This document shows positions 20,437 to 64,000 of a stretch of DNA of 64,000 nt, piece after piece. How positions within the stretch are numbered: position 1 is the stretch's first letter; every line of letters begins with the position of its first letter. The position numbers and the translations under genes are program-made. The notes beneath the pieces were generated by a model. The model did not search any database. It was given only the letters and a program-made list of their open reading frames with translations, and had not been told where the DNA came from. The DNA is from a virus, in IMG/VR virus record IMGVR_UViG_3300023179_000077, positions 1 to 64,000 of that record; one strand, 5' to 3'.

Positions 20437-22083
20437 ATGAACGTACAACAATTACTCGAGTCATCTAACCAGTATAAAGTTATAATGGAAGATGCACAAC
20501 GTTTGTCTGGTAAGTGGGCTAAATCCGGTCTTTTAGAAGGCATTAGCAACACTCAAGACAAAAACACAATGGCTATTCTCCTTGAGAACCAAGCCAAGCA
20601 ATTAATCACTGAAGCTTCTGCTACAGGTGGTACTACCTCAATGTCTGGTGCTGGATATAATGCAGAAAACTGGGCTGGTGTAGCTTTGCCATTAGTTCGC
20701 CGCGTATTCGGTGAAATCGCTGCTAAAGAATTCGTTAGCGTACAACCAATGAACTTACCTTCAGGTCTCGTATTCTATCTTGATTTCAAATACGGTACTG
20801 GTGTTAAGCCATTTACCAGCGGTGGTTCACTTTATGGTGCTAACGCTACTACAAACGTAACCGATATTGCTTCTCAATCACTTTATGGTGCTGGTAAGTT
20901 TGGTTACTCAATCAACCAATTCTCAGCTTCTATTGTTGCTGTAACCGGTTCAACCACATGGGCTGACTTTAACTTAGATTCTACCTATTCAGCTTCTGCT
21001 GCTACTGGTTGGAAAAAGATTTCAGTTCCTCTCCCAGCTGCTGCTGATACAAATGCTGTTAGATCATTTGTATTTACTTCTGGTTCTTCCGGAACATTCA
21101 TCAGCGCTAATGACATTTTACAGCAATTTACAACTGTAGCTAATAGCACAGCTTCATTCATTGTAACTGGTTCATTAGTATCTGTTTCTAGCTCAACTCC
21201 AACAGTAACCTTGTTCTTCTCTGTAGCTCCTACTCCAGCAGCTCGTGGTGATTTCGAAGATCAAACAACAGGTGGCGGTGCTGGTAACGGCGGTAATGGT
21301 GGTTATCCTGGTGCTAACACTACTTCTGCTGCAATTGCTATCCCAGAAATCAACGTTCAGTTGAAATCAGAAGCTATTGTTGCTAAAACTCGTAGGTTAA
21401 AAGCACAATGGACACCAGAATTCGCTCAGGATCTTAATGCTTATCATAGTGTTGATGCTGAAGCTGAATTAACTGGTATCTTATCACAGTATATTTCAAT
21501 GGAAATCGACCTCGAAATCCTTGATATGTTAATTCAAAACGCTTTCACTACTGAATACTGGTCAGCAGTTAACAACCAAGGCGTAGGTGCTTCTGGTGTT
21601 ACTAATGGTAACCTCGGTTACTACAACACCCAAGGTGGTTGGTTCCAAACCCTCGGCACTAAGCTCCAGAAAGTTTCTAACATAATCCATCAGTTAACTC
21701 TCCGCGGTGGCGCTAACTTCCTCGTAACTTCACCAACCGTAGCTACAATCCTCGAATCAATTCCTGGATTTGCTTCTGACGGTGATGGTGAAAAAATGGA
21801 ATTCAACTTCGGTATTCAGAAAGTTGGTTCACTTAACAGCCGTTACAAGGTTTACAAGAACCCATACATGACTGAGAACGTAATCCTCATGGGTTACAAA
21901 GGTGCTCAGTTCCTTGAGTGCGGTGCTGTATTTGCTCCATATGTGCCTTTAATCATGACTCCACTTCTCTACGATCCTAACACCTTCACTCCACGTAAAG
22001 GTTTGATGACTCGTTACGCTAAGAAGATGATTAGACCGGACTATTATGGTCGTGTATATGTTGCTGGTTTAAATACTCTTTAA
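20437..22083 (+). CDS. Major capsid protein (T4 gp23-like)
   Basis: LLENQ, PLVRR, VQPMNLPSGLVF, AKTRRLKAQWT.E.AQDL.A.H..DAEAEL, APYVPL, TPRKGLMTRY. Confidence 0.96.
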   Translation: MNVQQLLESSNQYKVIMEDAQRLSGKWAKSGLLEGISNTQDKNTMAILLENQAKQLITEASATGGTTSMSGAGYNAENWAGVALPLVRRVFGEIAAKEFVSVQPMNLPSGLVFYLDFKYGTGVKPFTSGGSLYGANATTNVTDIASQSLYGAGKFGYSINQFSASIVAVTGSTTWADFNLDSTYSASAATGWKKISVPLPAAADTNAVRSFVFTSGSSGTFISANDILQQFTTVANSTASFIVTGSLVSVSSSTPTVTLFFSVAPTPAARGDFEDQTTGGGAGNGGNGGYPGANTTSAAIAIPEINVQLKSEAIVAKTRRLKAQWTPEFAQDLNAYHSVDAEAELTGILSQYISMEIDLEILDMLIQNAFTTEYWSAVNNQGVGASGVTNGNLGYYNTQGGWFQTLGTKLQKVSNIIHQLTLRGGANFLVTSPTVATILESIPGFASDGDGEKMEFNFGIQKVGSLNSRYKVYKNPYMTENVILMGYKGAQFLECGAVFAPYVPLIMTPLLYDPNTFTPRKGLMTRYAKKMIRPDYYGRVYVAGLNTL

Positions 22084-22122
22084 TCTAGTATAACATAATA
22101 GCCCTGTAAGGCTTAAAAAAAC

Positions 22123-22153
22123 AAAAGGCTCGAGGTAATACTCGGGCCTTTTT
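22123..22153 (+). terminator. Terminator after major capsid gene
   Basis: AAAAGGCTCGAG / CTCGGGCCTTTT stem. Confidence 0.8.
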
Positions 22154-22169
22154 GTATATTTATACACGT

Positions 22170-22718
22170 ATGAAAACATGTAAAAAATGTGGTATTGAAA
22201 AACCACTAAATGAATATTGTAAACGTAAAGAAGAAAAAGATGGATTACATCGTTATTGTAAACCATGTATGAGACAACGTCTTAAAAATGAGTACAATAG
22301 GGATAAAGAAAAACATCTTAAACGTACTCGAAAATATCAAGAGGAAAATAGGGAATATTTTAGAAATAAATCTAATAATCACTACCACACCAAAAAAGAC
22401 TACTATCGCGAATGGAATCGAACTAAATATTCTACTGATTTACTATTTCGTCTCCGCCATACTCTCAATTCTATCATAAACCATCACCTTAAAGAAGGTA
22501 AATCACAAAGCAGCATTGACTATCTAGGCTGCACAATACAAGAATACAAAGAGTATCTTGAACCACTATTCACACCAGAAATGAATTGGGAAAATTATGG
22601 AACTTATTGGGAAATAGACCACATTCATCCATTAGCTAAAGGTGGATCATTTCATTATACCAACACTCAGCCACTTACTGTAGTTGAAAATAGAATAAAA
22701 TCAGACATAATATTATGA
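22170..22718 (+). CDS. HNH homing endonuclease with CxxC zinc finger (paralogue of 12901)
   Basis: MKTCKKC..CKPC, MNWENYG.YWEIDHIHP, FHYTNTQPL...N; start moved to ATG 22170. Confidence 0.82.
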   Translation: MKTCKKCGIEKPLNEYCKRKEEKDGLHRYCKPCMRQRLKNEYNRDKEKHLKRTRKYQEENREYFRNKSNNHYHTKKDYYREWNRTKYSTDLLFRLRHTLNSIINHHLKEGKSQSSIDYLGCTIQEYKEYLEPLFTPEMNWENYGTYWEIDHIHPLAKGGSFHYTNTQPLTVVENRIKSDIIL

Positions 22719-28083: not shown

Positions 28084-28308
28084 ATGGCACGATTAAAATT
28101 AAAACAAGTATTATCTAATTTATCATATAATGCTACTACTAATCAATTAACTCTTAGTGGTAGTTCAGACCCATCATTTATAATCTCAGGCTCAGTTTAT
28201 GTAGCATCAACACCAACAATAACAGGTTCTGTTACAATTCAAAACGTAGATACATTCGGTGATAGTGGCAGCTTCTATACGTTAGACCTAGGAAATAATT
28301 CATTTTAA
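28084..28308 (+). CDS. Small virion protein
   Basis: Four (S/T)GS motifs in 74 aa; structural context. Confidence 0.6.
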   Translation: MARLKLKQVLSNLSYNATTNQLTLSGSSDPSFIISGSVYVASTPTITGSVTIQNVDTFGDSGSFYTLDLGNNSF

Positions 28309-28346: not shown

Positions 28347-31300
28347 ATGCCAAAGATTATTCCAAATTATACAACAATTCCTGGACAGGGATTTACTATT
28401 TTAGATTTAGATTTAGGAGAAATAGCACTTAACGTTAGTGATGGTAATCTATATCTTAAAAAAGAAACAGCAGGAGTACCAAGTGTTGTTATACTAGCAG
28501 GTCCTGGAAATGTTGCTGTTAGTTCATCATATGCTTTAACATCATCATATGCTAATTATGCTGCTGTAGCATTAAATGCTACTAATTCTCTTAATACTTT
28601 ATTTGGTATATTTTCACTTCATTCGTATTACTCTCAATTAGCAAGAACAGCATCGTTTGCATATAAAGCAGATTATTCTGATTTTGCATTAAAGGCTTTA
28701 ACAGCTACTAATGCTTCAACAGCATCTTTACCTATACGAGGTATAATAACAGCATCAGCTGCTGGTTCTACAATTACATTTACTAAAGGCGATAGCAGTA
28801 CTTTTAACGTTAGCGTAACAACAGCAACTGCTCAAACAGCATCATATGTTACTTCATCTAACGTTGATGGTCCTTATGGTAAAAATAGTATACTAACAGC
28901 ATCATACGCTCTAACAGCATCATTACCGCTTCGAGGTTTAATAACAGCATCCGCTGTCGGCTCTACAATCACGTTTACTAAAGGTGATAGTAGTACTTTT
29001 AATGTTACTATAACAACAGCAACTGCCGAGACTGCATCATATGTATCTTCTTCTAATGTTGATGGTCCTTATGGAAAAAATAGTATATTAAGTGCGTCGT
29101 ATGCTGTAACAGCATCTTATGTTTTAAATGCAATAAGCGCCTCGTATGCTCTTAGTGCCTCACAAGCATTTAGTTCATCATATGCGTTTAGTGCATCACA
29201 AGCAGTTAGCTCATCATACGCACTTAGTGCATCGTTTACTTCAACAGCAAGCTATTCCCTATCATCATTATCAGCATCATATGCTAGTACTGCTTCTAAT
29301 ATAGAAGGAGGTGCTACAAATTATATTACACTATGGAGAACCAATACTGCTTTAACAAGCAGTGTAATGTATCAAAGTAGTAGTAATATTACTATAGGTG
29401 GTGGAGCTATTTTACCTTCAGCTAGGTTAGAAGTAAAAGGAGCAGGCTCTACATCAGCTACTGCTGCTTTAAACGTTATAAATGCTTCATCAACAGATTT
29501 ATTATACTTAAGAAATGATGGTTTTGTAGGTATAGGAACAGCATCTGCTGCTTCTACTGAAAATATGTTCATTAAAAAACAGTGGACTATATTTGATCAA
29601 GGAGTTGATCTTACAAATTATACTATAGTTGATATATCAAATACAACTAGTGTTTTAAGATTAGGAGTTGAAACTAATTCTGGAGGAGGTATAGCAACAA
29701 ATTCTACAGCTTATGCTGGTATAATTGGTACTACAAAAAATATTCCATTACAGTTTATTACTAGCGGCAGTGTAAAAACTACTATAACATCAACAGGTAA
29801 TTTTGGAATAGGTATTACATCACCGTTATATACTTTAGATGTATCAGGCAGTGCTCGTATTACTAGCTCAGTATTCTTACCAGGATTAATTAATACTAGT
29901 CAATCTCATCTTATAAGCTATAATTCAAGTTCAGGACAACTTTATTATTTAGGAACCGGTTCGTTTACAGCTAGTTGGGCTAATAATACTATTAGTGCTT
30001 CTAATGCACAAACAGCAAGTTATATTCTTAACGCTGTATCTGCATCGTTTGCTTCTACAGCTTCATACGTGTTAAATGCAGTCAGCGCATCATTTGCATC
30101 AACTGCTTCGTTATCTCAGAATGCATTAACAGCGTCATTTATAACAGCTTCTAATGTTTGGGGCCCGTTTGGCTCAAACAGTATTATCAGTTCATCGTTT
30201 GCATCAACGGCTTCATATGTTCTTAACGCTGTGTCTGCATCATTTGCAGCAACAGCATCATCCGCAGATAATTTTCTAGTTAGAGGCACACTTACTGCAC
30301 AAACTATTATAGCACAAGTAATAACTTCATCAACTGACTTTGTTACTGGTTCAACTCGTTTCGGTACTCAACTCACTAATACACATCAATTTACCGGCAG
30401 CGTAAGTATAACTGGTAGTTTAACTGTTACTGGAGCTGGAATTACAGGATCGCTGTTTGGAACAGCAAGTTGGGCAGTGAGCGCATCACAAGCACTTACA
30501 GCTTCATATGTGTTAAATGCTGTATCATCATCCTATGCACTAAGTGCATCACAAGCTCAAAATGCAACTACAGCATCATACGTGTTAAATGCTGTTTCAG
30601 CATCATTCGCTAGTACAGCATCGTTTGTTCAAAATGCTATATCTGCTTCGTTTGCTTCTACTGCTTCATATGTGTTAAATGCAGTTAGTGCATCATTTGC
30701 ATCTACTGCTTCATTCGTTCAAAATGCAGTTAGTGCATCATTCGCATCAACAGCATCCTTAGCTCAAAATGCTTTAACAGCATCATTTGTAACAGCGTCT
30801 AATGTTTGGGGCCCATTCGGATCAAATAGTATTATTAGCTCATCGTTTGCTAGTACAGCATCCTTAGCTCAAAATGCAGTTAGTACTTCATTCGCCGCAA
30901 CAGCATCATCCGCAGATAACTTTACAGTACGTGGTACACTTACTGCTCAAACAATAGTAACTCAAGTTATAACTTCAAGTACTGATTTTGTAACTGGTTC
31001 ATCTCGATTCGGTACATTATTAACAAATACACATCAATTTACAGGTAGTGTAAGTATAACAGGAAGTTTAAATGTAGTAGGAGCTGGAATTACAGGTTCA
31101 TTGTTTGGAACATCATCGTGGGCTAACAATGCAATAAGTTCATCTTATGCATTATCAGCATCACAAGCACAAAACGCAGTTAGTGCATCTTATGTATTAA
31201 ACGCTGTAAGTGCTTCATTTGCTAGTACAGCATCCTATGTACTTAATGCAGTTAGTGCTTCATTTGCTAGTACAGCATCGTTCGTTCAGAATGCCGTTTC

Positions 31301-46798: not shown

Positions 46799-47203
46799 AT
46801 GCCACAAAACACATCTCCTATTTTTGCACAAACTCCTATTCTAGCACAAACGTATATTACTGGTTCATATACAGATAGAACAGGAGCAACTTCGGGATTG
46901 TACACTCTTGTAACTGCTGGTTCTAGCGGTTCTAAAGTAACTCAAATTGGAGTTAAATTTACAGGAAATACAGTTACAGGCTCTTTATTAGTATTTGTTA
47001 CTAATACGGCAGGAGCAAGTCCTAGGTTATACGATGAAGTCCCTGTTACTGCTTTAACTGTTAGTACAACTAGCGGCTCCTACAGAAACGTAAACACATA
47101 TACCGATTTTCAAATAAACGCAGGACAACTAATACAAGTTGGACTAACTGCTATTTCTTCAAGTGTGTCATGCAGTGTGTTTGCTTCACAAGGTAATTTT
47201 TAA
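46799..47203 (+). CDS. Small virion protein
   Basis: Ser/Thr/Gly-rich beta protein with four (S/T)GS motifs. Confidence 0.6.
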   Translation: MPQNTSPIFAQTPILAQTYITGSYTDRTGATSGLYTLVTAGSSGSKVTQIGVKFTGNTVTGSLLVFVTNTAGASPRLYDEVPVTALTVSTTSGSYRNVNTYTDFQINAGQLIQVGLTAISSSVSCSVFASQGNF

Positions 47204-51157: not shown

Positions 51158-51643
51158 ATGCCTGTACTAGACGCAAATGAAATTATGTTTACAGCGTTTG
51201 AACCTAAAGTTCAGAATCGCTTTATCATGTATATTGACGGTATTCCCGCATACTTGATTAAAGCTGCTTCTGCTCCTGGATTTGAAGCTGGTGAAATTAT
51301 ATTAGATCACATCAACGTTTACCGTAAAGTAAAAGGTAAAGTACGTTGGAATGATATGACTTTAAGTTTATATGATCCTGTAACTCCCTCTGGTGCTCAA
51401 GCTGTAATGGAATGGGCTCGTTTAGCACACGAATCAGTAACTGGTCGTGATGGCTATTCTGACTTCTATAAGAAAGACTTAACATTAGATATTTTAGGTC
51501 CTGTAGGTGATGTAGTAGGTGAGTGGATTGTTAAAGGTGCTTATTGTAAAACAGCAACTTTTGGTGAGTATGATTGGGCTAACGATGCTGCAATTAACTT
51601 ATCCGTTACAATCGCTATGGATTACTGCGTATTGAACTTCTAG
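51158..51643 (+). CDS. Tail tube protein (T4 gp19-like)
   Basis: EPK..NRF, W..MTL.LYDP, YKKDLTL..LGPVGD.V.EW; follows the sheath. Confidence 0.88.
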   Translation: MPVLDANEIMFTAFEPKVQNRFIMYIDGIPAYLIKAASAPGFEAGEIILDHINVYRKVKGKVRWNDMTLSLYDPVTPSGAQAVMEWARLAHESVTGRDGYSDFYKKDLTLDILGPVGDVVGEWIVKGAYCKTATFGEYDWANDAAINLSVTIAMDYCVLNF

Positions 51644-51670
51644 TTTCTCTATACTTCTTTCTTTTATAAA

Positions 51671-51695
51671 GGCGTCTGCTTTTGCAGACGCTTTT
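51671..51695 (+). terminator. Rho-independent terminator
   Basis: GGCGTCTGC-TTTT-GCAGACGCT plus T-run. Confidence 0.8.
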
Positions 51696-51738
51696 ACTTT
51701 TCATATATTTATATATATCAAACAACAAAAAACGTTAT

Positions 51739-52482
51739 ATGGCTGAATTAAAAATTCCAACAGAAACAGTTACATTACCCTCTAAAGGTTTACTTTATCC
51801 CGCTACATCACCATTAGCAAAAGGTGAAATTGAAATGAAGTATATGACAGCTAAAGAAGAAGATATTCTTACTAATGCTAACTATATTAAAAATGGCACA
51901 GTAATAGACAAATTATTACAAGCACTTATTATAACACCAATCGACTATAATGAATTATTAGTCGGTGATAAAAATGCTATTTTAATTGCTGCTCGTATTT
52001 TAGGTTATGGTAAAGACTATTCATTTGAATATAACGGAAGGCAATATACAGTAGATTTGTCTACATTACCTGATAAGCAAATAGATGAATTTTCATTTAA
52101 AGCAGGTGTAAATGAATTTACATTTACTTTACCTCACTCAAGTAATACAATAACTTTTAAACTTTTAACACACGGCGATGAACAAAAAATAGAAGCCGAA
52201 ATTAAAGGTATGCAAAAAATAAATCCAAATATTACTACAGACGTTACAACACGTTTAAAATATATTATTACTTCAGTTGAAGGTAAACGTGACCAAAAAG
52301 ATATTCGCGATTTCGTAGATAACTACTTAATTGCAAAAGATGCAAGAGCACTCCGTGAATACTACAATAAAGTATCTCCAGATATCGATTTAAAATACAA
52401 ACCAGATGATGAAGATTATGTTGGGGAGGGCATAAATATTCCTATTTCAATTAACTTTTTTTGGCCTGACGCCGGAATATAG
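51739..52482 (+). CDS. Tail/baseplate-hub assembly chaperone (T4 gp26-like)
   Basis: LPSKG..Y, MTAKEEDIL, GDKNAILIAARI..YG, ends NFFWP; start moved to ATG 51739. Confidence 0.75.
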   Translation: MAELKIPTETVTLPSKGLLYPATSPLAKGEIEMKYMTAKEEDILTNANYIKNGTVIDKLLQALIITPIDYNELLVGDKNAILIAARILGYGKDYSFEYNGRQYTVDLSTLPDKQIDEFSFKAGVNEFTFTLPHSSNTITFKLLTHGDEQKIEAEIKGMQKINPNITTDVTTRLKYIITSVEGKRDQKDIRDFVDNYLIAKDARALREYYNKVSPDIDLKYKPDDEDYVGEGINIPISINFFWPDAGI

Positions 52483-52738
52483 ATTATATGTTTTTTCTCA
52501 AATACATGAAATAGTATTTCATGGTAAAGGTGGGTATGATTGGAATACACTATATAATATGCCTATTTGGCTTCGTCGATTTACATTTGAAAAAATTAAA
52601 GAATTTTACGAAAAAGAACGTGAAGAAGCTGAAAAACAGCAAAACCTATTAAAGAATACATCAAGTAAAGAAATATCAAGACCAAACGTTACTCCTCCAA
52701 AACAACCAACATATATAACTAAAGCGCCCAAAAAGTAG
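52463..52738 (+). CDS. gp51-like chaperone extension, probably expressed by frameshift from the upstream gene (not in the ORF track)
   Basis: Frame reads GLTPEYRLYVFSQIHEIVFHGKGGYDWNTLYNMPIWLRRFTF..; no ATG until 52559; begins at a T7 run. Confidence 0.7.
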   Translation, partial: GLTPEYRLYVFSQIHEIVFHGKGGYDWNTLYNMPIWLRRFTFEKIKEFYEKEREEAEKQQNLLKNTSSKEISRPNVTPPKQPTYITKAPKK

Positions 52739-52746
52739 GGCGCTTT
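52721..52746 (+). terminator. Hairpin/terminator before tape measure gene
   Basis: AAAGCGCCC / GGGCGCTTT stem followed by ATATTTAT. Confidence 0.65.
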
Positions 52747-52773
52747 AATATTTATACGAAGTAACATTAAATT

Positions 52774-55656
52774 ATGGCAGTAACTCCAGATCCACAAGAC
52801 CAGGCAGAATTAAATAAGCTATATCAAGAATATATTAGACTATTAGAAATAGTTGATGGGAAAACTGCTGCTCAAGCTAAAATACAAGCAGATGCTGCTA
52901 AAGTAGCAGGAAATTTAACTAAAGAAGTAAATAGATTAAATAAAGAATTAGATAATACTTTATTTAAATCAGATTATTTATATCAATCTTTTAAAGAAAC
53001 AACAGCTGAATTAAAAAATCAAAATACTTTATTACAAGCCGGCAGATCTACATTTAAAGGGCTTACTGATATTGCATCTAATTTAAAATATTTTCAACAA
53101 GGAATTACAGATTTAAGTGATAAACAATTAAGAAAACAAAAACAAAAACTAGAATATAGTAAGGAAGAGTTAAAAAGTATAGTAGATAGATTATCTAATT
53201 CTAAAGGAGAATATAATAAAACAAATCAAATATTAAATTTAGAAAGAGTATTAACAACTTTAACTGGTGAAAGAAAAAAACGAGCTGAATTAATATTAGC
53301 TAGTTTAAAAAAAGAAGAACAAGTTTATCATACTTCTAAGAATGCTTTAGAAGAAATGCTTCCTGTATTAGAAAAAGAATTACAATTTTCTAAAGATATA
53401 TCTAAAGCTAGAGAATCTTTAGGAGGAATTACAACAGCGGCTGCAAAAACTATAAGTAAATATGGTGGTTCTTTATCTGAATTTTTAGATATAAATGAGT
53501 CAATAGAAGCTGTTGAAGAATATAATAGAAAAATTATAAACAATGCTCTAACAAGAGAAGATGTTTTAAAAAGTTTACATGAAAATGAATTAAAAAGAAT
53601 TAAATTAGAAGCAAAATTAGAAACAGCAACAGGAAGTGATAGAAAGAAAATACTTGAAGAAATAAATGCTTTAGAAGAAAAAAATCTAGCAATTAAACAA
53701 AACGCTGTTAAATCTACTGATACCTTATTAAATAAAATAAAAACATTAGGAGTATTCATACAAGGATTAGGACCTGGTCTTAAAAAAGCATTAACAGATC
53801 CAATAACATTAATTACTTTTTTTGTAACTAAAGCATTAGAAGCAAATACTCAAGCAGTAAATCTAGGAAAATCACTTGGAATTAGTGCTGAAGCTGCAAC
53901 AAAGTTAAGAGAAGAATCGGTAAAGTATGTTAATAATTCTAAAGATACATTTTTAACTGTAAAACGATTAGAACAAGCTCAATCTGATTTATCTGAAGAA
54001 TTAGGTATTGCTGTTCGCTTTGGTCAGAAAGAATTAGAAACTCAAGCTCGTTTAACAGAATTAACAGGTTTATCTGGTCAAGAAGCAGCTAAATTAAATA
54101 GAATTGCATCTGCTACAGGTACAACAACTGAAAAGTATGTAGGTAATTTGCGTAAAGCTGTATTTTTTGCTCAACAAGAAACTAAAACTCATTTTAATAG
54201 TCAAAAAATATTACAAGAAATATCTAAATTAAGTGCAGGTATATTAGTTAAGTTCCAAGGTAATCCTAAAGCATTAGCACAAGCTGTTGTTGAAGCTAAA
54301 AAATTAGGTACTAATTTAGATACAATAGATAAAATTGGTGATTCATTATTAGATTGGGAATCATCAATTCAAAATGAATTAGAAGCTGAATTACTAACTG
54401 GTAGAGAAATAAATTTAGAAAGAGCACGCGCCGCTGCTTTATCAGGAGATCAACTAGCATTAACTAGAGAAATATCAGATCAAGTTGGAACATTAGCTGA
54501 TTTTCAAAATTTAAATGTAATTGCTCAGACATCATTAGCAAAATCATTTGGATTAAGTAGAGAAGAAATGTCTGAAATGTTAATGCAACAAGAAGCTATT
54601 AATAAGTATGGAGATAAAGCTGCTAAATTAAATAAAGATCAGTTAGCAGATATGAAAAGACAAGGACTATCTGTTGATGAATATCTTACAAAACAAGAAC
54701 AACAACAAACTACTCAACAAAAAATTAATGATACTATAGCCCAATTACAAGAAAGTATAGGTAATTTAGTTGCTGGTCCTTTAGGTTCACTTATTAATTC
54801 ATTAGCTAAAGGTTTAGATATTATTAGTCAAATATGGAAATTTTTTGGAAAAATAGGTAGTGTAATTAAAGGATTTTTTGGAGATAAAATTGGAGGTATT
54901 TTAGGTGATGTTGCTTCTGTAGCTACAATAGGTGCTTTAATAGCATTAGTTACTAAGTCAATGTTAAAAGGCACTATCTTTAATCCAATGATTGTTGAGG
55001 ATGTTAGTTCTATTGGTGGAGGTGGTGGCAATAGTGGTGGAGGTGGTGGATTTAAAGGTGGTATAGGTAGAATTGGAAAAGCATTTAGCAAAGGCGGAAT
55101 GAAAGGTGGTGGTAAAGCAATAGGCAGAATACTTAGTAAAACATTAAAAGGAAATGCTCTTACAGCTTTAGTAATGGGTGGTATAGATGCTGTTACAAAT
55201 TTAAGTGAAGGAAAAGGTACAGGTGAATCTATAGGAAGAGCATTAATTACAGGATTAACATCACTTGGTGGGGGTGCTTTAGGGTCACTTATAGCACCAG
55301 GAGCTGGAACTATAGGTGGCGGCATTGCTGGTGGGATGTTAGGTGATAAAATTAGTGATTGGATTTTTGGTGATTCACAACCAGTACAAGATGGTATAGC
55401 GCCTTCAAATCAAGGACCATTTATTATTAGAAACAAATATGGTAAAACTGCAATAACAACTAAAGGTGATAGCTTAGCAGTATCACCTAATATCAATAAT
55501 GCTTCATTAAATCTTACACCAATGATTAATGCAATTAATGAAGTTAAAAATGCTATACTTAATCCACCTTCTTCTCAATTACAACCAATAAAACTTTATC
55601 TTGATAGTAAAGAAATAACAACAGCACAACAAAAATCATCACGAGGACCTATATAA
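52774..55656 (+). CDS. Tape measure protein
   Basis: Long helical Ala/Leu-rich protein after tube and chaperone; Gly-rich hydrophobic C-terminal part. Confidence 0.8.
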   Translation: MAVTPDPQDQAELNKLYQEYIRLLEIVDGKTAAQAKIQADAAKVAGNLTKEVNRLNKELDNTLFKSDYLYQSFKETTAELKNQNTLLQAGRSTFKGLTDIASNLKYFQQGITDLSDKQLRKQKQKLEYSKEELKSIVDRLSNSKGEYNKTNQILNLERVLTTLTGERKKRAELILASLKKEEQVYHTSKNALEEMLPVLEKELQFSKDISKARESLGGITTAAAKTISKYGGSLSEFLDINESIEAVEEYNRKIINNALTREDVLKSLHENELKRIKLEAKLETATGSDRKKILEEINALEEKNLAIKQNAVKSTDTLLNKIKTLGVFIQGLGPGLKKALTDPITLITFFVTKALEANTQAVNLGKSLGISAEAATKLREESVKYVNNSKDTFLTVKRLEQAQSDLSEELGIAVRFGQKELETQARLTELTGLSGQEAAKLNRIASATGTTTEKYVGNLRKAVFFAQQETKTHFNSQKILQEISKLSAGILVKFQGNPKALAQAVVEAKKLGTNLDTIDKIGDSLLDWESSIQNELEAELLTGREINLERARAAALSGDQLALTREISDQVGTLADFQNLNVIAQTSLAKSFGLSREEMSEMLMQQEAINKYGDKAAKLNKDQLADMKRQGLSVDEYLTKQEQQQTTQQKINDTIAQLQESIGNLVAGPLGSLINSLAKGLDIISQIWKFFGKIGSVIKGFFGDKIGGILGDVASVATIGALIALVTKSMLKGTIFNPMIVEDVSSIGGGGGNSGGGGGFKGGIGRIGKAFSKGGMKGGGKAIGRILSKTLKGNALTALVMGGIDAVTNLSEGKGTGESIGRALITGLTSLGGGALGSLIAPGAGTIGGGIAGGMLGDKISDWIFGDSQPVQDGIAPSNQGPFIIRNKYGKTAITTKGDSLAVSPNINNASLNLTPMINAINEVKNAILNPPSSQLQPIKLYLDSKEITTAQQKSSRGPI

Positions 55657-55695
55657 AACCAATATAATTAAATATTTATACTAAATATTAAAACT

Positions 55696-55998
55696 ATGCC
55701 ACTATTAGACAAATTACCAACTAGCACTTTAGGATTAGGAGGAAATAAACCACTATCCTTTGGAGTTAATCCTATTCCTCCTGGTTCATTGCATGATACT
55801 TATTCTGTAGATAGTAATCCAAATGTAACTTGGAGATTAATTAAGAGAAATTTACCAATGAAACCACAGCCATCTGTATTAGACGAGACTGATATTAATG
55901 CTCCTAATTTAAGACCTGTAGGTGTTGTATCACAAATATATAAATCTTCCACTGGTCGTAGATACAAAGATTTAGGTCCAAAAGAAGGACGTTATTAA
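55696..55998 (+). CDS. Hypothetical virion protein
   Basis: ORF preceded by ATATTTAT. Confidence 0.6.
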   Translation: MPLLDKLPTSTLGLGGNKPLSFGVNPIPPGSLHDTYSVDSNPNVTWRLIKRNLPMKPQPSVLDETDINAPNLRPVGVVSQIYKSSTGRRYKDLGPKEGRY

Positions 55999-56007
55999 TA
56001 TACATAA

Positions 56008-58188
56008 ATGCCACTTCTTGATTTAAAAACCGATTTAAAATCTCTTAAATACGGAAACGATCAACCAGGAGGAGGTAGTAGTGGCCAACCATATGTAACA
56101 ACTGATATTAATACAGTTGATACAGGATTTAACCGTTTTCGAATGACTAAATTCGATGATGGTCTAGTTCGAGGGGGTGTAGTTGGTGCCGCTAATGCTT
56201 CAATTGTTGATACTATTCGTGTAGGAAAATTTCTTAAGGACTTTCCAAAAGGTCCTTTATTTATTGTTAAACAAATAGGTTTACAATTATCTAATCCTAG
56301 ATTAGAAATAAAAAAATTAAAGACAGATAATCCTACCTCTGGCGGTGGATTATTAAGAAATGTAGGTAATTTTATTCTTAATACAGCAAATAAAATTCAA
56401 AATGCTGTAGGTCCTACTCGTATTTATAATTTAGGTATCAATACGCTTGCTCAAGTACCAATTAATGCTTTTGGTCAACATATAGTAAGACATGGTTTTA
56501 CTCCTAAACGCAATGATGATAATTTATATTTTAAAGTTGCTCAATATAATAATAATGAAGATAGTAATAGATTAACTCAATTAAGATCTATATTAGGTAA
56601 TACTAATGATATTGCTAATTATATTAGTGGTCCTTCATCTGTTTATGGTATTGGTAAAACAATTATTAGAAGAAGAGGTGATTTTCTTATAGTAAATCAA
56701 GATATAACTGAAAATGAATGGGCTATTAAAGGGGCTAAAGAAGCAGGAATATCATATAGATTAATAGGACATGAAGGGGGAACAAGAGATGGTTATATAG
56801 ATGCTAGTAGAAGAATAACAGATTTTACAGGAGTATCAAACCAAACAGGTTCAATTTTAGCTTCTAATTCTTTATTTTTTAAAGATAAAAAATCTATTCA
56901 ATCTGTATTTAACAGTAGAAGATATAATACTCCATTAGGATTAAACGAATACGATAAATTATCACAATATAGTGGAAGTAATACTTGGTTTCCCCAAAAT
57001 GGAGAACCAAGACGAGCTAGTTTACGAACTGATTTAGGAGTATCAAAACAATATTTTTCAGGATCAAATATTGGTTTACCTAATTTAGATATTACTACTT
57101 ATTCTCAAATAGTAACAACTAATCTTCCTATACAAGTAAATGGAAATAAAGTTACTTCTCTTCCTGTTGGAAATAAAGGAAAAATTTCTATTAAAAATGC
57201 TTCTTATCAAAAGTATAAAGATATAATTGATTCTAAAAAATTACGAGAAACAACTTATACTCTTGATGAAAATCAAATAAATGCTTTTGGAATATATGGT
57301 AATAGATTTCCTATAAAGGAAACTTTAGGAAATATTCTTCCAGACTCAACTCAACTTCCTGTTTATACTAATAAAGATAAAGTAGTAAAAATAAATATTC
57401 CATGGAATAAAGTTACTCGCGAAGAAAGAGTAGGTAGTGGACTACAAGATCAAATTAATTTAACACCTATATTTAATGCTACAGCAGGTACTCATATAGA
57501 TACTGTAAATATTTCTGGAATAGGAGAAAAAAATATAAATGATTTAGTTAAATTTAGAATTCAAGCATTAAATGGAGATAATCCTACACAGGCTAATTGG
57601 ATAATATTTAGAGCATATTTAACTCAATTTTCAGATAATACAGATGCTACTTGGAATCCAGTTAAATATGTTGGTAGAGGTGAAGATTTTTATATATACA
57701 ATGGATTTAGTAGAAAAATACAAATTGGTTTTAAAGTAGCAGCATTATCAGTTGAAGAAATGGAACCAATGTATCAAAAATTAAATTATTTAATGGGTAA
57801 TTTAATGCCTGATTATAAAGATAATTTATTAATGAGAGGTCCTTTAGTAAAAATGACTGTAGGTAATTGGCTTGATGGACAAGATGGTATATTAACTTCT
57901 CTTAATTATACAGTACCAAACGATTCACCTTGGGAAGTATCACTAAATACATTAAATGGTAATGAACTTTTAGAATTACCTCATATTATAGAAGTAAGTT
58001 TAGGGTTTACACCTATCGGTTCTCAAACTAAAGGTGTTAATAAAATATCTCAAAAATCTCAAACTACATCTCATATTGCTCAAAATTATAATGACTACCA
58101 ATACATAAAAACACGAGCAAGATCACAAGTAATAGTACCTTCTCCTGATAGAATTTCTGAAGAACAGTTTAATAATCCTTCATTTTAA
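56008..58188 (+). CDS. Baseplate / tube-initiator-like protein
   Basis: C-terminal FRAYL..FSD...W....YVGRGE.FY.Y.GFSR.I..FKV domain; position. Confidence 0.55.
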   Translation: MPLLDLKTDLKSLKYGNDQPGGGSSGQPYVTTDINTVDTGFNRFRMTKFDDGLVRGGVVGAANASIVDTIRVGKFLKDFPKGPLFIVKQIGLQLSNPRLEIKKLKTDNPTSGGGLLRNVGNFILNTANKIQNAVGPTRIYNLGINTLAQVPINAFGQHIVRHGFTPKRNDDNLYFKVAQYNNNEDSNRLTQLRSILGNTNDIANYISGPSSVYGIGKTIIRRRGDFLIVNQDITENEWAIKGAKEAGISYRLIGHEGGTRDGYIDASRRITDFTGVSNQTGSILASNSLFFKDKKSIQSVFNSRRYNTPLGLNEYDKLSQYSGSNTWFPQNGEPRRASLRTDLGVSKQYFSGSNIGLPNLDITTYSQIVTTNLPIQVNGNKVTSLPVGNKGKISIKNASYQKYKDIIDSKKLRETTYTLDENQINAFGIYGNRFPIKETLGNILPDSTQLPVYTNKDKVVKINIPWNKVTREERVGSGLQDQINLTPIFNATAGTHIDTVNISGIGEKNINDLVKFRIQALNGDNPTQANWIIFRAYLTQFSDNTDATWNPVKYVGRGEDFYIYNGFSRKIQIGFKVAALSVEEMEPMYQKLNYLMGNLMPDYKDNLLMRGPLVKMTVGNWLDGQDGILTSLNYTVPNDSPWEVSLNTLNGNELLELPHIIEVSLGFTPIGSQTKGVNKISQKSQTTSHIAQNYNDYQYIKTRARSQVIVPSPDRISEEQFNNPSF

Positions 58189-58194
58189 ATTATT

Positions 58195-58503
58195 ATGAAT
58201 CGCTACGATAACTCAACTATATTAACAATCCAATATACTAATCGTCCATATTATAAAGGAAAATTTTATCCTAATATTCCTTTATCAGAAAACGATGTGT
58301 ATGTTATTACTACAGTTGGTGATAGACTAGATTCATTAGCATATAGTTATTATCAAGATGTTAATTTATGGTGGATTATTGCCGCTGCTAATAATAATAT
58401 TACTAAAGGAGCATTATATCCAGCACCGGGTACTCAATTAAGAATACCAACAGATATTAATAATGTTCTTAAACAATTTAACCAATTTAATCAAGTAAGA
58501 TAA
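58195..58503 (+). CDS. LysM-like baseplate wedge protein (gp53 / tail X-like)
   Basis: GDRLDSLAY.YY.D..LWWIIA.AN..G..LRIP. Confidence 0.8.
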   Translation: MNRYDNSTILTIQYTNRPYYKGKFYPNIPLSENDVYVITTVGDRLDSLAYSYYQDVNLWWIIAAANNNITKGALYPAPGTQLRIPTDINNVLKQFNQFNQVR

Positions 58504-58507
58504 TGTT

Positions 58508-61393
58508 ATGTCTATATTTAAAGATACATTTAAATTTGGAGTTAAAACTCAAATAGAAAAAAGACAAGAAGCTATATTTGAACGCACTCCTACAGCTGTT
58601 CAATATTATAATGCTCGCAACGCTTGGATTAGAATGACCTCTTCTGTTAATGTTAAAGGTTCTGATAGTCTAGCTAAACAATATGTTTTAATAGGAGGAG
58701 TAATAAATAATAATGGTACTTTAAAATCAGGAATAGGAAATACAAATAATAATGCTTATAGCACAGTAACTCCTGGAGGTGGAACTAATAGACTAGGTAT
58801 TCGTCCTATGCCCGGTATTACTGGAATAGATGTACAATCATTAGGTGCCTATGGATCATTAAGAAATGTAGTTGTTAATTTTGTATGCTGGGATATACGT
58901 CAATTAGAAGATTTAGAATTACTTTATATGCGCCCTGGTTATACAGTGTTAATAGAATGGGGGTGGGCTCCTTATTTAACTAATAATAAAACATTAGGAA
59001 ATATTGTTAAATTTAATGATAGTGTTTTAAATGGAGGTAAATCAAAAGAAGATATTTGGAAAGAAATATTTACTCAAGCTTCAGCAGATGGTAACTATGA
59101 TGCAATGTATGGTAAAATACAAAATTATAGTTGGAAAGCCAGAAATGATGGAGGATATGATTGTACTGTAACAGTTATTTCTATTGGAGAAATAATAGAT
59201 TCTTTAAAAGTAAATTACGTACCTGCTGACCAACCAGATATTGAAAAAAAAGGAATCATTACTAATAGAATTACATCATTACAAGATTTAAATTTACAAA
59301 GTGAAATATCAGGATCGTATTCTAAAAATATAGTAGCCGGAGTATGTCATGAATTATATGCTATAGCAAGTGCAAGAATAACATCACCTGAAGGATCTTA
59401 TAGGATAGTAGATACTATAGGATCAAATTCTTATAATTATGATTTTTATAAATTATCTATACCTTTTACAAATGTAGATGTATCTAAAACATCTATTATT
59501 AAAAATGATGTTCAAATTTATATTACTTTAGGTTCATTTATTGAAATTTTGAATAAATACGTTTTAATAGAAGATAGTAAGCAAGGTACATCTTATGTTA
59601 AATTATCAGTTAAAGAATCTGATATAACGTCTGATGGAAAAAAAGATTTGTTATGTTTAGGAAATAAATATCAACTATCAACTGATTTATCTGTTTGTTT
59701 AATAGCAAATGAAGCATGGTTAAACCCAGAAGGAGAACTGGGTATTAAAGGATCATTTAATACTTTACAAACATTTACTAAAAATGCAACTAAAAAATAT
59801 TTTTATAGTGATTCAAACATAAATAATAAATATCAATTTGGTATTATAGGAAATATATATGTTAATTTAAATTATTTATACTCTTTAATTACTGATGATA
59901 ATGTTGCTTCTCAAGATCAAAATGAAAAAAATGATATTCCTGTATATAGATTTGTAAAAGATATTTTATTTGGAGTATCTAAAGCAATAGGAAACGTTGC
60001 TAATTTTGATATACATGTTGATCCTATAGATAATAATGTAGCTAAAATAATAGATGTAAACTATATAGACACAATAAGTAGAAAAGAAGCATATGATAAT
60101 GCTTTTAAATTTGAAATGCATAATACAAAATCTATAGTTAGAAACTATAGTTTAGAATCTTCAATATTTCCTAGTCAAGGAGCTATAGTAGCTATAGGTG
60201 CTCAAGTACAAGGTGGAGTTATAGGAGCAGATACAAATACATTAGTTGATTTTAATCAAAACTTAACAGATCGTATTATACCTAAAGTAAATGCTCCTGT
60301 AAAAAATAAATCATTAGAGGATGATATTAAAGCTAAAATAGATAATTTAACTAAAAACGTAAACGTAATAATAACTTTTATAACAGGTCTTGATACTAAT
60401 ACTTCTGAAGGAGGAGGATTTGATGTTTCTAAAACATCTGAATATTATTCTGCTTTACGAGATATAATTAATTTTTATAAAGGATTTGTTAATGTTAATA
60501 ATAAAAATAGAGCTATAATACCAACTAAATTATCTCTTGAAATAGATGGTATTGGAGGAATGATAATAGGAAATATATTTAGAATTCCTGATGAAATATT
60601 ACCTAAAGGATATAAAGGTGATGATGGGATAGGAGCTAAAATTGGATTTGTAGTAACTAAATTAGGTCATTCTATTCAAAATAATGACTGGATTACTAAA
60701 ATAGATTCACAATTTATCATTTTAGATAATCCCAAATCGGGTATTGATGAAGCTGCTTTTCAAGAACTACAAAAACAAATAATAACATCTATACAATCAG
60801 GTAATGTTGAAGAAGCAAAAAAAATTACATCATCTGCTATATCAACTATAAATCCACCAGAAAAAGGAAATTGGAATACTTTAAATAATACTCTTTTAAC
60901 TATAGCAAATCAAGGCTCAAAAACTTGGAAAGAGCAAAGATCTAATCCTCTTATTCTTAACACATATAAAGAAATAGGAATTCCTCAAAGTTCAGATGCT
61001 GCTGCTTGGTGTGCTGCTTTTGTAGGATATGTTTTAAAAACATCTAAATTACCTTATTTAAAAACTTTAAGTAGTTTAGCATATGCTAAATATGGTCAAG
61101 AAGTATCTCTTAATGATCCGTCAAAATGGAGAAAATGGGATATAGCAGTATGGAAACATACTACTAAACCAGGAACAGGTCATGTATCTTTTATAACAGG
61201 AGTAACAGGAACTGGAACTACACCACAAGAACCAATAAGCGCTTTTGGAGGTAATCAATCAGATACTGTGCAAGTTTCAAAATATCCTTATAGAGGAAGT
61301 GATATGGTTTTAATTGCTGTTAGAAGAGCCTGGATTCCTCCTAATAATATATTACCACCAGCTTCAGGAAATACTGGAGGTAATACAATATAA
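58508..61393 (+). CDS. Baseplate hub protein with C-terminal TIGR02594-like (CHAP/NlpC-type) peptidoglycan hydrolase
   Basis: RPMPGITG, LYMRPGYTVLIEWGW; C-terminal AWCAAFV, GHVSF, GGNQSD. Confidence 0.75.
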   Translation: MSIFKDTFKFGVKTQIEKRQEAIFERTPTAVQYYNARNAWIRMTSSVNVKGSDSLAKQYVLIGGVINNNGTLKSGIGNTNNNAYSTVTPGGGTNRLGIRPMPGITGIDVQSLGAYGSLRNVVVNFVCWDIRQLEDLELLYMRPGYTVLIEWGWAPYLTNNKTLGNIVKFNDSVLNGGKSKEDIWKEIFTQASADGNYDAMYGKIQNYSWKARNDGGYDCTVTVISIGEIIDSLKVNYVPADQPDIEKKGIITNRITSLQDLNLQSEISGSYSKNIVAGVCHELYAIASARITSPEGSYRIVDTIGSNSYNYDFYKLSIPFTNVDVSKTSIIKNDVQIYITLGSFIEILNKYVLIEDSKQGTSYVKLSVKESDITSDGKKDLLCLGNKYQLSTDLSVCLIANEAWLNPEGELGIKGSFNTLQTFTKNATKKYFYSDSNINNKYQFGIIGNIYVNLNYLYSLITDDNVASQDQNEKNDIPVYRFVKDILFGVSKAIGNVANFDIHVDPIDNNVAKIIDVNYIDTISRKEAYDNAFKFEMHNTKSIVRNYSLESSIFPSQGAIVAIGAQVQGGVIGADTNTLVDFNQNLTDRIIPKVNAPVKNKSLEDDIKAKIDNLTKNVNVIITFITGLDTNTSEGGGFDVSKTSEYYSALRDIINFYKGFVNVNNKNRAIIPTKLSLEIDGIGGMIIGNIFRIPDEILPKGYKGDDGIGAKIGFVVTKLGHSIQNNDWITKIDSQFIILDNPKSGIDEAAFQELQKQIITSIQSGNVEEAKKITSSAISTINPPEKGNWNTLNNTLLTIANQGSKTWKEQRSNPLILNTYKEIGIPQSSDAAAWCAAFVGYVLKTSKLPYLKTLSSLAYAKYGQEVSLNDPSKWRKWDIAVWKHTTKPGTGHVSFITGVTGTGTTPQEPISAFGGNQSDTVQVSKYPYRGSDMVLIAVRRAWIPPNNILPPASGNTGGNTI

Positions 61394-61990: not shown

Positions 61991-63286
61991 ATGTTTTATA
62001 TTATAGAGCGCTCAGATCAATTGTTTTCTCAATCGTTTAACGATTGTTTCGTTAGATTTATTTCTAAAAACGATAATTATCATCCGTCACTCACGTCACT
62101 AAGTCTAATATACGTTAGACCGCTTGATGGAAAGAAAGGATACATTTTGTGTTTAGATCACAATGAATCGTTTAGTATACCTCAAACTGAAATTATTAAT
62201 TGGCTACTTAATAATACAGGTAAACTGTGGGTATTGAACAAAAAAGAAGCACTACATTGGGTATATCCACTAGCTGATAAATTATACGATGCTCATCTAC
62301 TCGAATTTATTGACTTAACTGAAATATTAGGAAATAATTGTATTAATCATTATTATAGAAATAATATTAATTTACCTAATATTAATTGCTTAATACCAAT
62401 CAGTAAACACTATGAAGAATGTGAAAAAATATTTCAAGCAACACTACCTATAATACAAAAATACACACCCAGTAATACACAATTCCAATTTCAAAATTTT
62501 AATACAGTAAACGTATTCTATAATATAGAAAAAAACGGCATAAAAGTAGATAAAAACTGCTTTATTGACTGTTATGGCGATGATTTAAAATATCCCGAGT
62601 TTAGTTTATTTAAGGGAAGAATATATTCTTCTTATAATTTAAATACTACTACGTCTCGTCCGTCAAACACATATAACACTATTAATTTCGCAGCACTGAA
62701 TAAAACAAACGGAGAACGTTTATGTTATAAACCAAATAACGATTCATTTATAGAGATAGACATTCAGGGCTATCATCCACGCTTAATAGGTGAATTAGTT
62801 GGTTTTGAATTTCCTAAAGATAAAAACACATATGATTACTTAGGTGAATTACTTAATGTATCACAGCAGGAAGCTAAAGAATTAACGTTTAAGCAGTTAT
62901 ATGGTGGTGTTTGGAGTGAATATCGTGATAAACCATTCTTTAAAGACGTAATAAAATACATTGATAATTTATGGAATACATACCAATATAATGGTTACTA
63001 CGAAACTAAAAATAAAATATTTATACGTGACAAAACAATGACAATTAATAAATTATTTAATTATGTAATTCAAAGTTATGAAACATCAACTAATGTTCAG
63101 TTACTTGAATTAATTTTAAATCATTTAAAAGATAAAAAAACAAAACTAGTACTATACACGTATGATGCTTTCTTATTTGATTATAACAAAGAAGATATTA
63201 ATTTAATTCAAGAAATAATAAATATACTAAAATACCCAGTAAATATCAAACAAGGCAAAACATATCACAGTTTAACCAAAATCTAA
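61991..63286 (+). CDS. Short divergent family-A (PolA-like) polymerase
   Basis: TTTSRPSN, DIQGYHPR (motif A), AKELTFKQLYG (motif B), NYVIQ, YTYDAFLFD (motif C). Confidence 0.8.
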   Translation: MFYIIERSDQLFSQSFNDCFVRFISKNDNYHPSLTSLSLIYVRPLDGKKGYILCLDHNESFSIPQTEIINWLLNNTGKLWVLNKKEALHWVYPLADKLYDAHLLEFIDLTEILGNNCINHYYRNNINLPNINCLIPISKHYEECEKIFQATLPIIQKYTPSNTQFQFQNFNTVNVFYNIEKNGIKVDKNCFIDCYGDDLKYPEFSLFKGRIYSSYNLNTTTSRPSNTYNTINFAALNKTNGERLCYKPNNDSFIEIDIQGYHPRLIGELVGFEFPKDKNTYDYLGELLNVSQQEAKELTFKQLYGGVWSEYRDKPFFKDVIKYIDNLWNTYQYNGYYETKNKIFIRDKTMTINKLFNYVIQSYETSTNVQLLELILNHLKDKKTKLVLYTYDAFLFDYNKEDINLIQEIINILKYPVNIKQGKTYHSLTKI

Positions 63287-63292
63287 ATATTT

Positions 63293-63715
63293 ATGACAGA
63301 ACATTATAATTTATTTGATCAATTGAATAAACTTTTCTGTACATTCACTTTACCGGACGAACTAGAATCTACTATTAATAATATTAACCGCCGCTATGTT
63401 ATATTATATAATAAAATATTCATACTCGAATCGCCTCAAAGTAACGAGTTAATATGCACTTATAACATAGACACCGGCAACGTTGCCGACAGCCCATTAC
63501 CAAATACTATTCTAGTACATCGTAAAAAAGAATCAAACACACTCTACACTATCAATGCTTTAAATGCATTGATTAGACAACTTAATGAAGGAAGGCTAGA
63601 TAAAAATTATATGGTTAATTGGTTAGACTATAGAAACTGTATATTATTGAATAATGGCCCTGAATTACGTCGTTTAGATACAGCTATTTATAAAATTATA
63701 GACTTAGGTAAATAA
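63293..63715 (+). CDS. Hypothetical protein
   Basis: ORF: NKLFCTF..CTYNID..HRKKESNTLYTINALN. Confidence 0.7.
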   Translation: MTEHYNLFDQLNKLFCTFTLPDELESTINNINRRYVILYNKIFILESPQSNELICTYNIDTGNVADSPLPNTILVHRKKESNTLYTINALNALIRQLNEGRLDKNYMVNWLDYRNCILLNNGPELRRLDTAIYKIIDLGK

Positions 63716-63716
63716 A

Positions 63717-64000
63717 ATGGCTACATACACATCAAATCAATTATACGGCTCTGGTTCAATCGGAGAAAATTTATCAGGATTAAAAACATTTACGTTTTAT
63801 AATGCTGATGCTTCAACTGGTTATTTTACTTTAGAGACTATAAGAAATGCTGATGGATTTTACAATAGTGGTTCTAAAACTAACGCAGTAGGAACATGGG
63901 TTGTATCATCATCTATGGGATTTGTTTCATCATCTCATGTAGCTTCAGCTGTTATTTCTCCAGGCACATCATCGCTTACATTTACACCAACAGTAGCTGT
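63717..64000 (+). CDS. Partial Ser/Thr-rich (probably virion) protein, runs off the window
   Basis: ATG at 63717, MATYTSNQLYGSGSIGENLSG.. open to the window end. Confidence 0.65.
   Translation, partial: MATYTSNQLYGSGSIGENLSGLKTFTFYNADASTGYFTLETIRNADGFYNSGSKTNAVGTWVVSSSMGFVSSSHVASAVISPGTSSLTFTPTVA

Follow-up and report, generated by a model that had tools for sequence, protein, structure and literature searches.

A short pattern, hydrophobic-[Ser/Thr]-Gly-Ser-hydrophobic, recurs throughout the particle proteins encoded on a 64,000-nucleotide stretch of viral DNA (positions 1 to 64,000 of IMG/VR record IMGVR_UViG_3300023179_000077, hereafter the window), and sequence comparisons indicate that it is a lineage-specific, selected surface motif of outward-facing virion proteins. 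The motif, abbreviated [ST]GS below, is found in the insertion domain of the major capsid protein, in an insertion of the neck protein, in the outer domains of the tail sheath, in the tail fibres and in some small open reading frames (ORFs). We tentatively propose, with just under an even chance, that [ST]GS serves as a sequon for the cytoplasmic O-glycosylation of virion proteins; a structural role of the motif is about equally likely. A preliminary description of the window had noted both (S/T)-G-S and (S/T)-A-S tripeptides in its virion proteins and had suggested convergent selection for a short surface sequon, read for instance by an O-glycosylating phage enzyme encoded outside the window.

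An order-specific motif in the virion proteins

On recount, all tripeptide numbers given for single proteins in the preliminary description were exact. Expected counts were obtained from shuffles of each protein, with stricter controls in which residues were shuffled only within blocks of 40, 20 or 12 residues. The pooled non-fibre virion proteins contain 29 [ST]GS where 7.8 are expected (3.7-fold), and the pooled fibres contain 110 where 23.8 are expected (4.6-fold). A single site is present in the non-virion genes (2.2 expected), which corresponds to chance level. The near-absence of the motif from non-structural genes, which had been judged by eye, was borne out: the terminase, portal, oxidoreductase, ATPases and protease have none, and the 28 upstream genes have one [ST]GS in all. 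When shuffling was confined to 12-residue blocks, the non-fibre virion proteins showed 19 SGS against 4-5 expected and 10 TGS against 4.5 expected. In the same proteins, the permuted words SSG, GSS, SGT, STG and TGT occur at expectation, so that the excess is specific to the order of the residues. The S/T/G content of the proteins does not account for the [ST]GS excess, and composition or local low complexity is ruled out as its source by the block shuffles and the permuted words.

An unbiased scan of all tripeptides returned SGS as the leading high-count outlier. GSL and GSY were enriched too, and the motif therefore extends to [ST]-G-S-hydrophobic. Position tables gave S or T before the Gly, Ser alone after it (29 vs 8.2 expected) and Y, I, L or V in the next position. 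The residue at -1 is hydrophobic at 84% of the sites in fibres and 48% of those elsewhere, and the residue at +1 at 65% and 59%, respectively. No enrichment was seen in the virion proteins for [ST]GT, [ST]GN, [ST]GD or NGS, for the turn dipeptides NG (38 observed, 46 expected), DG (27, 29) and G[ND] (89, 75), or for the known sequons D[ST][AILVMT], N-x-S/T and D/E-x-N-x-S/T. As Ser alone follows the Gly and turn words are not enriched, the pattern is not the one expected from plain turn propensity.

Codon usage at the motif is like the background and no 9-mer dominates; the signal thus lies in the protein and not in the DNA, and a DNA-level signal is ruled out as the origin of the motif. The motif segments of the capsid, neck, sheath, small ORFs and fibres show a mutual similarity no higher than that of shuffled controls. 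Common ancestry of these segments was rejected on the same grounds, the BLAST matches among them being no better than those of the controls; with no detectable sequence homology, the earlier statement that shared ancestry does not explain the motif stands.

In the capsid protein, three [ST]GS (0.8 in shuffles) and three SAS or TAS are all located in the insertion domain (residues 163-246), and the two types together number six against 1.6 expected (p=0.002). The neck protein carries four [ST]GS and two SAS at residues 152-291, with 0.33 expected for the four [ST]GS (p<0.002). The seven [ST]GS of the sheath, where 0.97 are expected, are at residues 62, 93, 139, 154, 216, 251 and 259. For the tail fibres of 1832, 3173 and 855 amino acids, the counts are 29 vs 7.2, 65 vs 13.2 and 16 vs 4.0, respectively, those of the 855-residue fibre being mostly of the form hydrophobic-[ST]-G-S-hydrophobic; for [ST][GA]S, the 1832-residue fibre has 111 against 21. 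[ST]GS recurs in the fibres with a hexad-like period, for example as FTGSVSITGSLNVTGAGITGSLFGT.

The standing given to SAS/TAS as a co-equal sequon could not be maintained. Outside the fibres neither word is enriched (SAS 4 vs 3.5, TAS 1 vs 3.5 expected), and their excess in the fibres comes entirely from a tandem 15-residue Ala/Ser repeat of the NAVSASFASTASYVL type (window 28347-46771, three fibre genes). The SAS/TAS excess in the fibres is therefore the result of duplication and not of convergence. The pentadecad period of this repeat suggests a trimeric coiled-coil-like shaft.

Conservation, turnover and structural setting of the sites

The window is part of a 77-kb linear viral contig with an estimated completeness of 46% (CheckV), a single-strand gene layout throughout and a G+C content of 27-40%. 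With its T4-type terminase, portal, prohead protease, gp23-type capsid protein and tail sheath, the window phage is a distant T4-like myovirus. Its nearest cultured relative is Flavobacterium phage vB_FspM_immuto (immuto; capsid protein 58% identical), and the next nearest are the uncultured 484-kb phage LR756508, Microcystis phage Mel-JY01 and Rhodothermus phage RM378. The capsid and the sheath protein each retrieved at least 8,000 candidate relatives, many at 77-95% identity. The sheath protein of the window is also recorded on a 133-kb contig, and an exact 44-nt word of its gene had no match among metagenome contigs. By the similarities of the two proteins, the window phage is a member of a very abundant uncultured aquatic T4-like clade in public metagenomes. 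Two complete uncultured relatives, G001 and G002, were used as comparison genomes; the contig is collinear with positions 64.7-138.5 kb of G001.

In close homologues (119 sheath and 120 capsid proteins, 77-98% identity), conservation is higher at the motif residues than in the flanking positions, as illustrated by sheath site 93 (1.0, 0.99 and 1.0 vs 0.65 for the flanks) and capsid site 215 (approximately 0.9 vs 0.46). When sites change, it is the middle residue that changes (SGS to SSS or SAS, TGS to TSS or TAS) and both hydroxyl residues are kept; Ala and Ser are tolerated in place of the central Gly across homologues. The motif Ser of the sheath has a conservation of 0.98, compared to 0.68 for other Ser residues of the same domains (p=0.003). 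The alignments thus indicate that the motif sites are under purifying selection. In 150 mutually divergent sheaths (36-76% identical to the window sheath), [ST]GS is present at 3.6-4.9 times and [ST]AS at about twice expectation, and [ST]GT, G[ST]S, [ST]GN and NGS are near onefold. An alignment of 71 sheaths (36-62% identity) places 338 sites in 64 site clusters, none of which is held by half of the sequences, and the fourfold enrichment is alike in lineage-specific insertions (161 vs 40.1) and in shared columns (177 vs 39.8). The homologue data therefore point to site positions that are kept over short evolutionary distances and turn over at long range while the density holds.

The T4 virion proteins including the long tail fibres contain 8 [ST]GS with 13.9 expected and none in gp18, gp23 or gp12; without the long tail fibres the count is 2 vs 9.4, an apparent depletion, and the difference is not interpreted further. 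Cyanophage S-SSM4 has 7 [ST]GS against 6.8 expected (sheath, 0 vs 1.0). The motif is enriched in the sheath (7 vs 1.3) and two other virion proteins of immuto, not in its capsid protein; proteins of 139 and 373 residues are among those of immuto that are rich in the motif. The virion region of G002 contains 148 sites against 31.5 expected, and that of G001 497 against 227, a count inflated by Gly/Ser/Thr repeat proteins; the non-virion ORFs hold 11 vs 13.0 in G002 and 11 vs 10.8 in G001. From the counts in these two genomes, the motif is positively enriched in particle proteins and neutral in the rest of the proteome. Taken across these phages, the sequence counts indicate that the [ST]GS excess is lineage-specific and not generic to these virion folds. 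The preliminary description had also raised the possibility that related clades swap to a different tripeptide; no replacement motif was found in the sampled non-fibre virion proteins of LR756508 or RM378. In the giant Gly/Ser/Thr repeat proteins of G001 (45144-60078 and 108103-109818), [ST]GT and G[ST]S exceed expectation as strongly as [ST]GS does (e.g. 192 vs 49), a distinct low-complexity pattern that inflates the motif counts of that genome.

The predicted structure of the sheath has a mean predicted local distance difference test score (pLDDT) of 87.9 and its fold matches T4 gp18. The N-terminal half holds all seven sites, the conserved C-terminal core being free of them; following T4 gp18, we take the N-terminal half to comprise the outward domains. 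The capsid model is poor overall (mean pLDDT 42.5, shallow alignment), and its insertion domain alone (pLDDT 60-83) was read, with caution. Mapped onto these models, as had been recommended at the outset, the sites are predicted to occupy the insertion domain of the capsid protein and, in the sheath, the outer N-terminal domains.

Motif-bearing genes and a probably late glycosyltransferase cassette

The genes that carry the motif are listed in Table 1. The 74- and 134-residue ORFs gave no family match in profile searches; the G001 homologue of the former (69% identical) likewise has four [ST]GS. The Peptidase_S74 intramolecular chaperone domain of the 1832-residue fibre is located at window positions 33529-33708 (residues 1728-1787, E 2.5e-14), and judging from this domain the fibre probably cleaves off its own C-terminus once trimerised. 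A module of the form GNVGIGTTSPxAKLxV recurs in the 855-residue fibre (residues 80-123, 404-464 and 562-629) and is also present in the 3173-residue fibre; it matches Bdellovibrio Bd2133 (PDB 8OND, E 3.6e-8) and is thus common to phage fibres and a fibre protein of a predatory bacterium. Between the fibre genes and the sheath gene, a 254-residue protein (window 47209-47973) has a concanavalin-A-like lectin/glucanase (Laminin_G_3) domain and no [ST]GS, and is possibly a carbohydrate-binding virion protein.

Table 1. Window coordinates of the genes bearing the motif
Feature	Position	Strand	Assignment or motif count (observed vs expected)
Major capsid protein, T4 gp23 type, 548 aa	20437..22083	+	PHROG major head protein, E 7e-72
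Neck / head-tail adaptor with inserted domain, 523 aa	23966..25537	+	C-terminus corresponds to PHROG head-tail adaptor Ad2
74-aa ORF just upstream of the fibre genes	28084..28308	+	4 [ST]GS vs 0.31
Tail fibre, 1832 aa	28347..33845	+	TGS hexad-like strands, 15-residue Ala/Ser repeat, C-terminal Peptidase_S74 chaperone domain
Tail fibre, 3173 aa	34435..43956	+	Hexad-like and Ala/Ser repeats as in the 1832-aa fibre, plus GNVGIGT modules
Tail fibre, 855 aa	44204..46771	+	PHROG tail fibre
134-aa ORF inside the fibre cluster	46799..47203	+	4 [ST]GS vs 0.49
Tail sheath, 572 aa	49391..51109	+	PHROG tail sheath, E 2e-73
Virion (baseplate-region) protein, 726 aa	56008..58188	+	3 [ST]GS vs 0.61, p=0.03, marginal
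113-aa ORF, extends to 64058 beyond the window edge	63717..64000	+	2 SGS vs 0.56, not significant alone

All five relatives examined encode several glycosyltransferases, including a conserved cassette in fixed order: a small ribbon-helix-helix-like ORF, a GT-B protein of ~486 residues, a second GT-B protein of ~435 residues, a protein of ~130-150 residues and a GT2 protein of ~210 residues. The cassette is located at 31-35 kb in G001, and from the collinearity with this genome that of the window phage is expected approximately 30 kb past the end of the contig. The suggestion that the modifying enzyme is encoded outside the window thus fits what was found, namely an incomplete contig free of glycosyltransferases, a cassette in five relatives and a location predicted by synteny. 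The genes after the cassette differ between genomes. In immuto, they code for PseC/LegC-type aminotransferases, a NeuD/PglB/PglD-type acetyltransferase, a dehydratase/epimerase, a methyltransferase and further transferases, and in G002 for RmlC, two short-chain dehydrogenase/reductase enzymes, a nucleoside diphosphate-hexose C-methyltransferase and a PfkB-like kinase. All products of the operon are predicted to be soluble, and Pfam shows soluble sugar enzymes only.

No flippase, polymerase or long polytopic membrane protein is encoded in the complete genomes G001 and G002, and ORFs with at least four transmembrane-like segments are absent from G002 and the contig and represented by one 112-residue ORF in G001. 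A lipid-carrier pathway (Wzx/Wzy or oligosaccharyltransferase) was rejected, as there is no polytopic flippase, polymerase or initiating transferase in these genomes.

Of 50,697 phage records, exactly seven have a homologue of the first transferase of the cassette, and these are also the seven with full-length capsid matches; the nearest protein clusters of this transferase are ~100% viral. The transferase homologue of LR756508 is 31% identical, and RM378 also has one. The best solved relative of the ~486-residue transferase is chlorovirus B736L (PDB 3OY2), with an E-value of 2.9e-9 over ~130 residues of the nucleotide-binding domain. An identity of the two GT-B proteins with GtfA and GtfB was considered and rejected, NCBIfam and Pfam giving weak generic Glycos_transf_1 matches only.

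By liquid chromatography-mass spectrometry, the DNA of immuto contains canonical dA, dC and dT, and dG is replaced by formyl-dPreQ1; no glycosylated base was reported (bioRxiv 10.1101/2023.04.13.536721). As its nucleosides are unglycosylated, DNA is an unlikely acceptor of the transferases, and a role in T4-type hypermodification by DNA glycosylation is, on the basis of this one relative, unlikely. The contig encodes a QueD (6-pyruvoyl-tetrahydropterin synthase) homologue at genome positions 73955-74425, consistent with the 7-deazaguanine DNA modification of immuto.

The octamer ATATTTAT has 35 sites on the coding strand of the contig and 11 on the other strand (11.7 expected), and 27 of the 35 are within 80 nt upstream of an ORF. 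It is found 20-50 nt upstream of ~20 late transcription units (e.g. window 11279, 23241, 28308, 34394, 44152, 49340, 51126, 52748 and 55672) and precedes virion and homing-endonuclease genes, not replication genes. According to this analysis, and by analogy with T4, ATATTTAT is probably the late promoter of the clade. In G001, G002 and immuto, the small ORF at the head of the cassette has it ~24 nt upstream, which places the transferases behind the same element as the virion genes. G001 has a second, late-type transferase cluster inside its tail-fibre region.

A 60-residue ORF (window 43970-44152) is located behind the late element and before the 855-residue fibre gene, and its G001 homologue (58% identical) heads a five-gene cluster, in which three of the five genes match glycosyltransferase families, including a 1109-residue GT2+GT1 fusion; from the contexts in the contig and G001, the same leader gene fronts different cargo. 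GIY-YIG/NUMOD homing-endonuclease genes are present at three positions (window 1433-1978, genome 64978-65724 and genome 75615-76229), with a fourth NUMOD-like ORF at genome 74388-75053; a late-type element is found upstream of each of the two homing-endonuclease genes beyond the window. At window positions 5500-7902, a DUF2201 metallopeptidase/VWA-like protein is encoded beside a MoxR-like AAA ATPase, and BLAST found no homologue of either in G001 or G002.

Readings of the motif and comparison with known systems

We propose that the soluble phage glycosyltransferases of the conserved cassette, made late in infection, would act on newly made virion proteins in the cytoplasm with [ST]GS as the acceptor site. 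The cassette of the window phage, followed by variable nucleotide-sugar enzymes, would lie in the unsequenced half of its genome. Such transferases would need a soluble acceptor that is present late and in hosts of different phyla, for which virion proteins would be the obvious candidate, and the most enriched, conserved and Ser-specific motif on these proteins would be the obvious site. It is possible, if somewhat short of an even prospect, that [ST]GS is a true sequon read by the phage-specific GT-B pair and that head, neck, sheath and fibres are coated across the clade with a strain-variable, phage-made glycan.

Several observations weigh against glycosylation at the motif. Profile searches found no glycosyltransferase in the 77-kb contig, which is 46% complete, and the window phage would possess the cassette by synteny with G001. 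The transferases match no known protein-O-glycosyltransferase family. The link between transferases and motif is loose, as LR756508 and RM378 have a transferase homologue and a sheath without excess: the two sheath paralogues of LR756508 have 0 vs 0.6 and 0 vs 0.4 [ST]GS and its capsid region 10 vs 8.5, and the sheath of RM378 has 1 vs 0.6, with 10 vs 4.1 in the RM378 virion proteins overall. With these exceptions, the co-occurrence of cassette and motif amounts to approximately one evolutionary event and is confounded with phylogeny. Furthermore, the motif is neutral in non-virion proteins and not avoided there. In the sheath model, the S/T of five of the seven sites is at or just past the C-terminal end of a beta-strand, with the G-S opening a loop, and the hexad-like periodicity of the motif in the fibres fits a structural role.

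Such a structural role, for which our confidence is likewise a little below even, would make [ST]GS a lineage-typical beta-strand exit or turn opening, or a small inward residue between two outward hydroxyls, in beta-rich decoration domains and fibre shafts, and the transferases would act elsewhere. It accommodates the hydrophobic residues that flank the motif, the fibre periodicity, the site positions conserved among close homologues and the two transferase-bearing relatives without excess, as well as the strand-end placement in the sheath model, in which S62-G63-S64 links strands 59-62 and 65-68, T154-G155-S156 links strands 145-153 and 158-165, and T216 ends strand 211-216. The sites in the capsid insertion domain model are placed in the same way. 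However, the loops after the motif have 2, 4 and 9 residues and thus conform to no single turn type, and NG, DG, G[ND], [ST]GN and [ST]GD are not enriched. A glycine-requiring turn is made less likely by the replacement of the central Gly with Ala or Ser in homologues; a canonical two-residue beta-hairpin turn motif was rejected for these reasons, NG, DG and G[ND] not being co-enriched. Thr is at least as well suited to beta-strands as Ser, yet [ST]GT does not exceed chance level. Moreover, the homologous folds of T4 and S-SSM4 do without the motif, and the same fourfold density is found in non-homologous, lineage-specific insertions. The claim of convergent selection for a surface sequon is therefore upheld in part: the excess goes beyond composition, affects non-homologous segments and is found in outer domains, but the association between transferases and motif is not strict and a structural role is about as likely.

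It is improbable that [ST]GS is the recognition site for something else, be it a different Ser modification such as phosphorylation or acylation, or a phage assembly or chaperone factor. Selective conservation of the motif Ser, its restriction to the virion and the GroES and GroEL genes carried by immuto would suit such a site, but nothing links chaperonins to a motif of this kind, the contig yielded no candidate kinase or acyltransferase, and among the modifying enzymes seen in the clade, glycosyltransferases alone are conserved, late and soluble. Less probable still is an artefact of composition, low-complexity patches, a DNA-level signal or shared ancestry: S, T and G are abundant in the virion proteins and tandem repeats are present in the fibres, but the excess survives 12-residue block shuffles with permuted words of the same composition at chance, the motif shows background codon usage, similarity among the segments does not exceed that of shuffled controls and the excess recurs across the 150 divergent sheaths, so that this explanation holds for SAS/TAS in the fibres only and is rejected for [ST]GS.

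To our knowledge, there are few known cases of glycosylated virions among phages, and none has a defined short acceptor motif. If the proposed glycosylation is correct, phage virion glycosylation would have its first defined sequon in [ST]GS, and sites that turn over while their density stays constant would be reminiscent of the glycan shields of animal viruses. Glycosylation at the motif would further account for the conservation, in these phages, of large glycan-biosynthesis islands without export genes, and suggest a strain-variable sugar coat affecting adsorption, stability or recognition by grazers and host defences. As a sequon, the motif would make glycosylation sites on many uncultured phages predictable from sequence alone. 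Should the motif be structural instead, homologous virion folds would provide a clean case of a structural 'dialect' specific to one lineage. With immuto, a cultured member of the clade makes the idea directly testable.

The general O-glycosylation of Bacteroidetes, the phylum of the likely host, is a periplasmic process that acts on exported proteins at the sequon D-[ST]-[AILVMT]. It resembles the proposed system in having a three-residue sequon, with a hydrophobic residue following. D-[ST]-[AILVMT] itself shows no enrichment, with 27 vs 23.2 expected for the non-fibre virion proteins and 10 vs 19.4 for the fibres. The O-linked N-acetylglucosamine transferase pair GtfA/GtfB of Gram-positive serine-rich repeat adhesins is a similar-sized cytoplasmic GT-B pair that modifies Ser in S-A-S-type repeats before export, as the phage enzymes would before assembly. 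The phage proteins do not match the GtfA/GtfB family models, and the resemblance is one of working principle only. We know of no short internal sequon defined for the virion O-glycosylation of mycobacteriophages, the phage system that is closest in outline. This modification has been reported for Che8 and others (Freeman et al. 2023, Cell Host Microbe, as cited in PMC13445384 and PMC11256854). According to the citing passages, the sugar coat of these virions is proposed to arise in the host cytoplasm, where glycosyltransferases encoded by the phage would O-glycosylate capsid and tail proteins. These mycobacteriophages are siphoviruses of actinobacteria with unrelated transferases, whereas in the clade of the window phage the target would be a defined tripeptide that recurs in many virion proteins. 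Finally, the capsid protein Vp54 of chlorovirus PBCV-1 is glycosylated autonomously, at atypical sites and by virus-encoded enzymes (PMC4691112, PMC5408694). The chlorovirus glycans are N-linked and made in a eukaryotic host, and the acceptor of B736L itself is unproven; in both systems, the virus encodes soluble glycosyltransferases together with nucleotide-sugar enzymes, and it is from the chloroviruses that B736L, the best solved relative of the clade transferase, comes.

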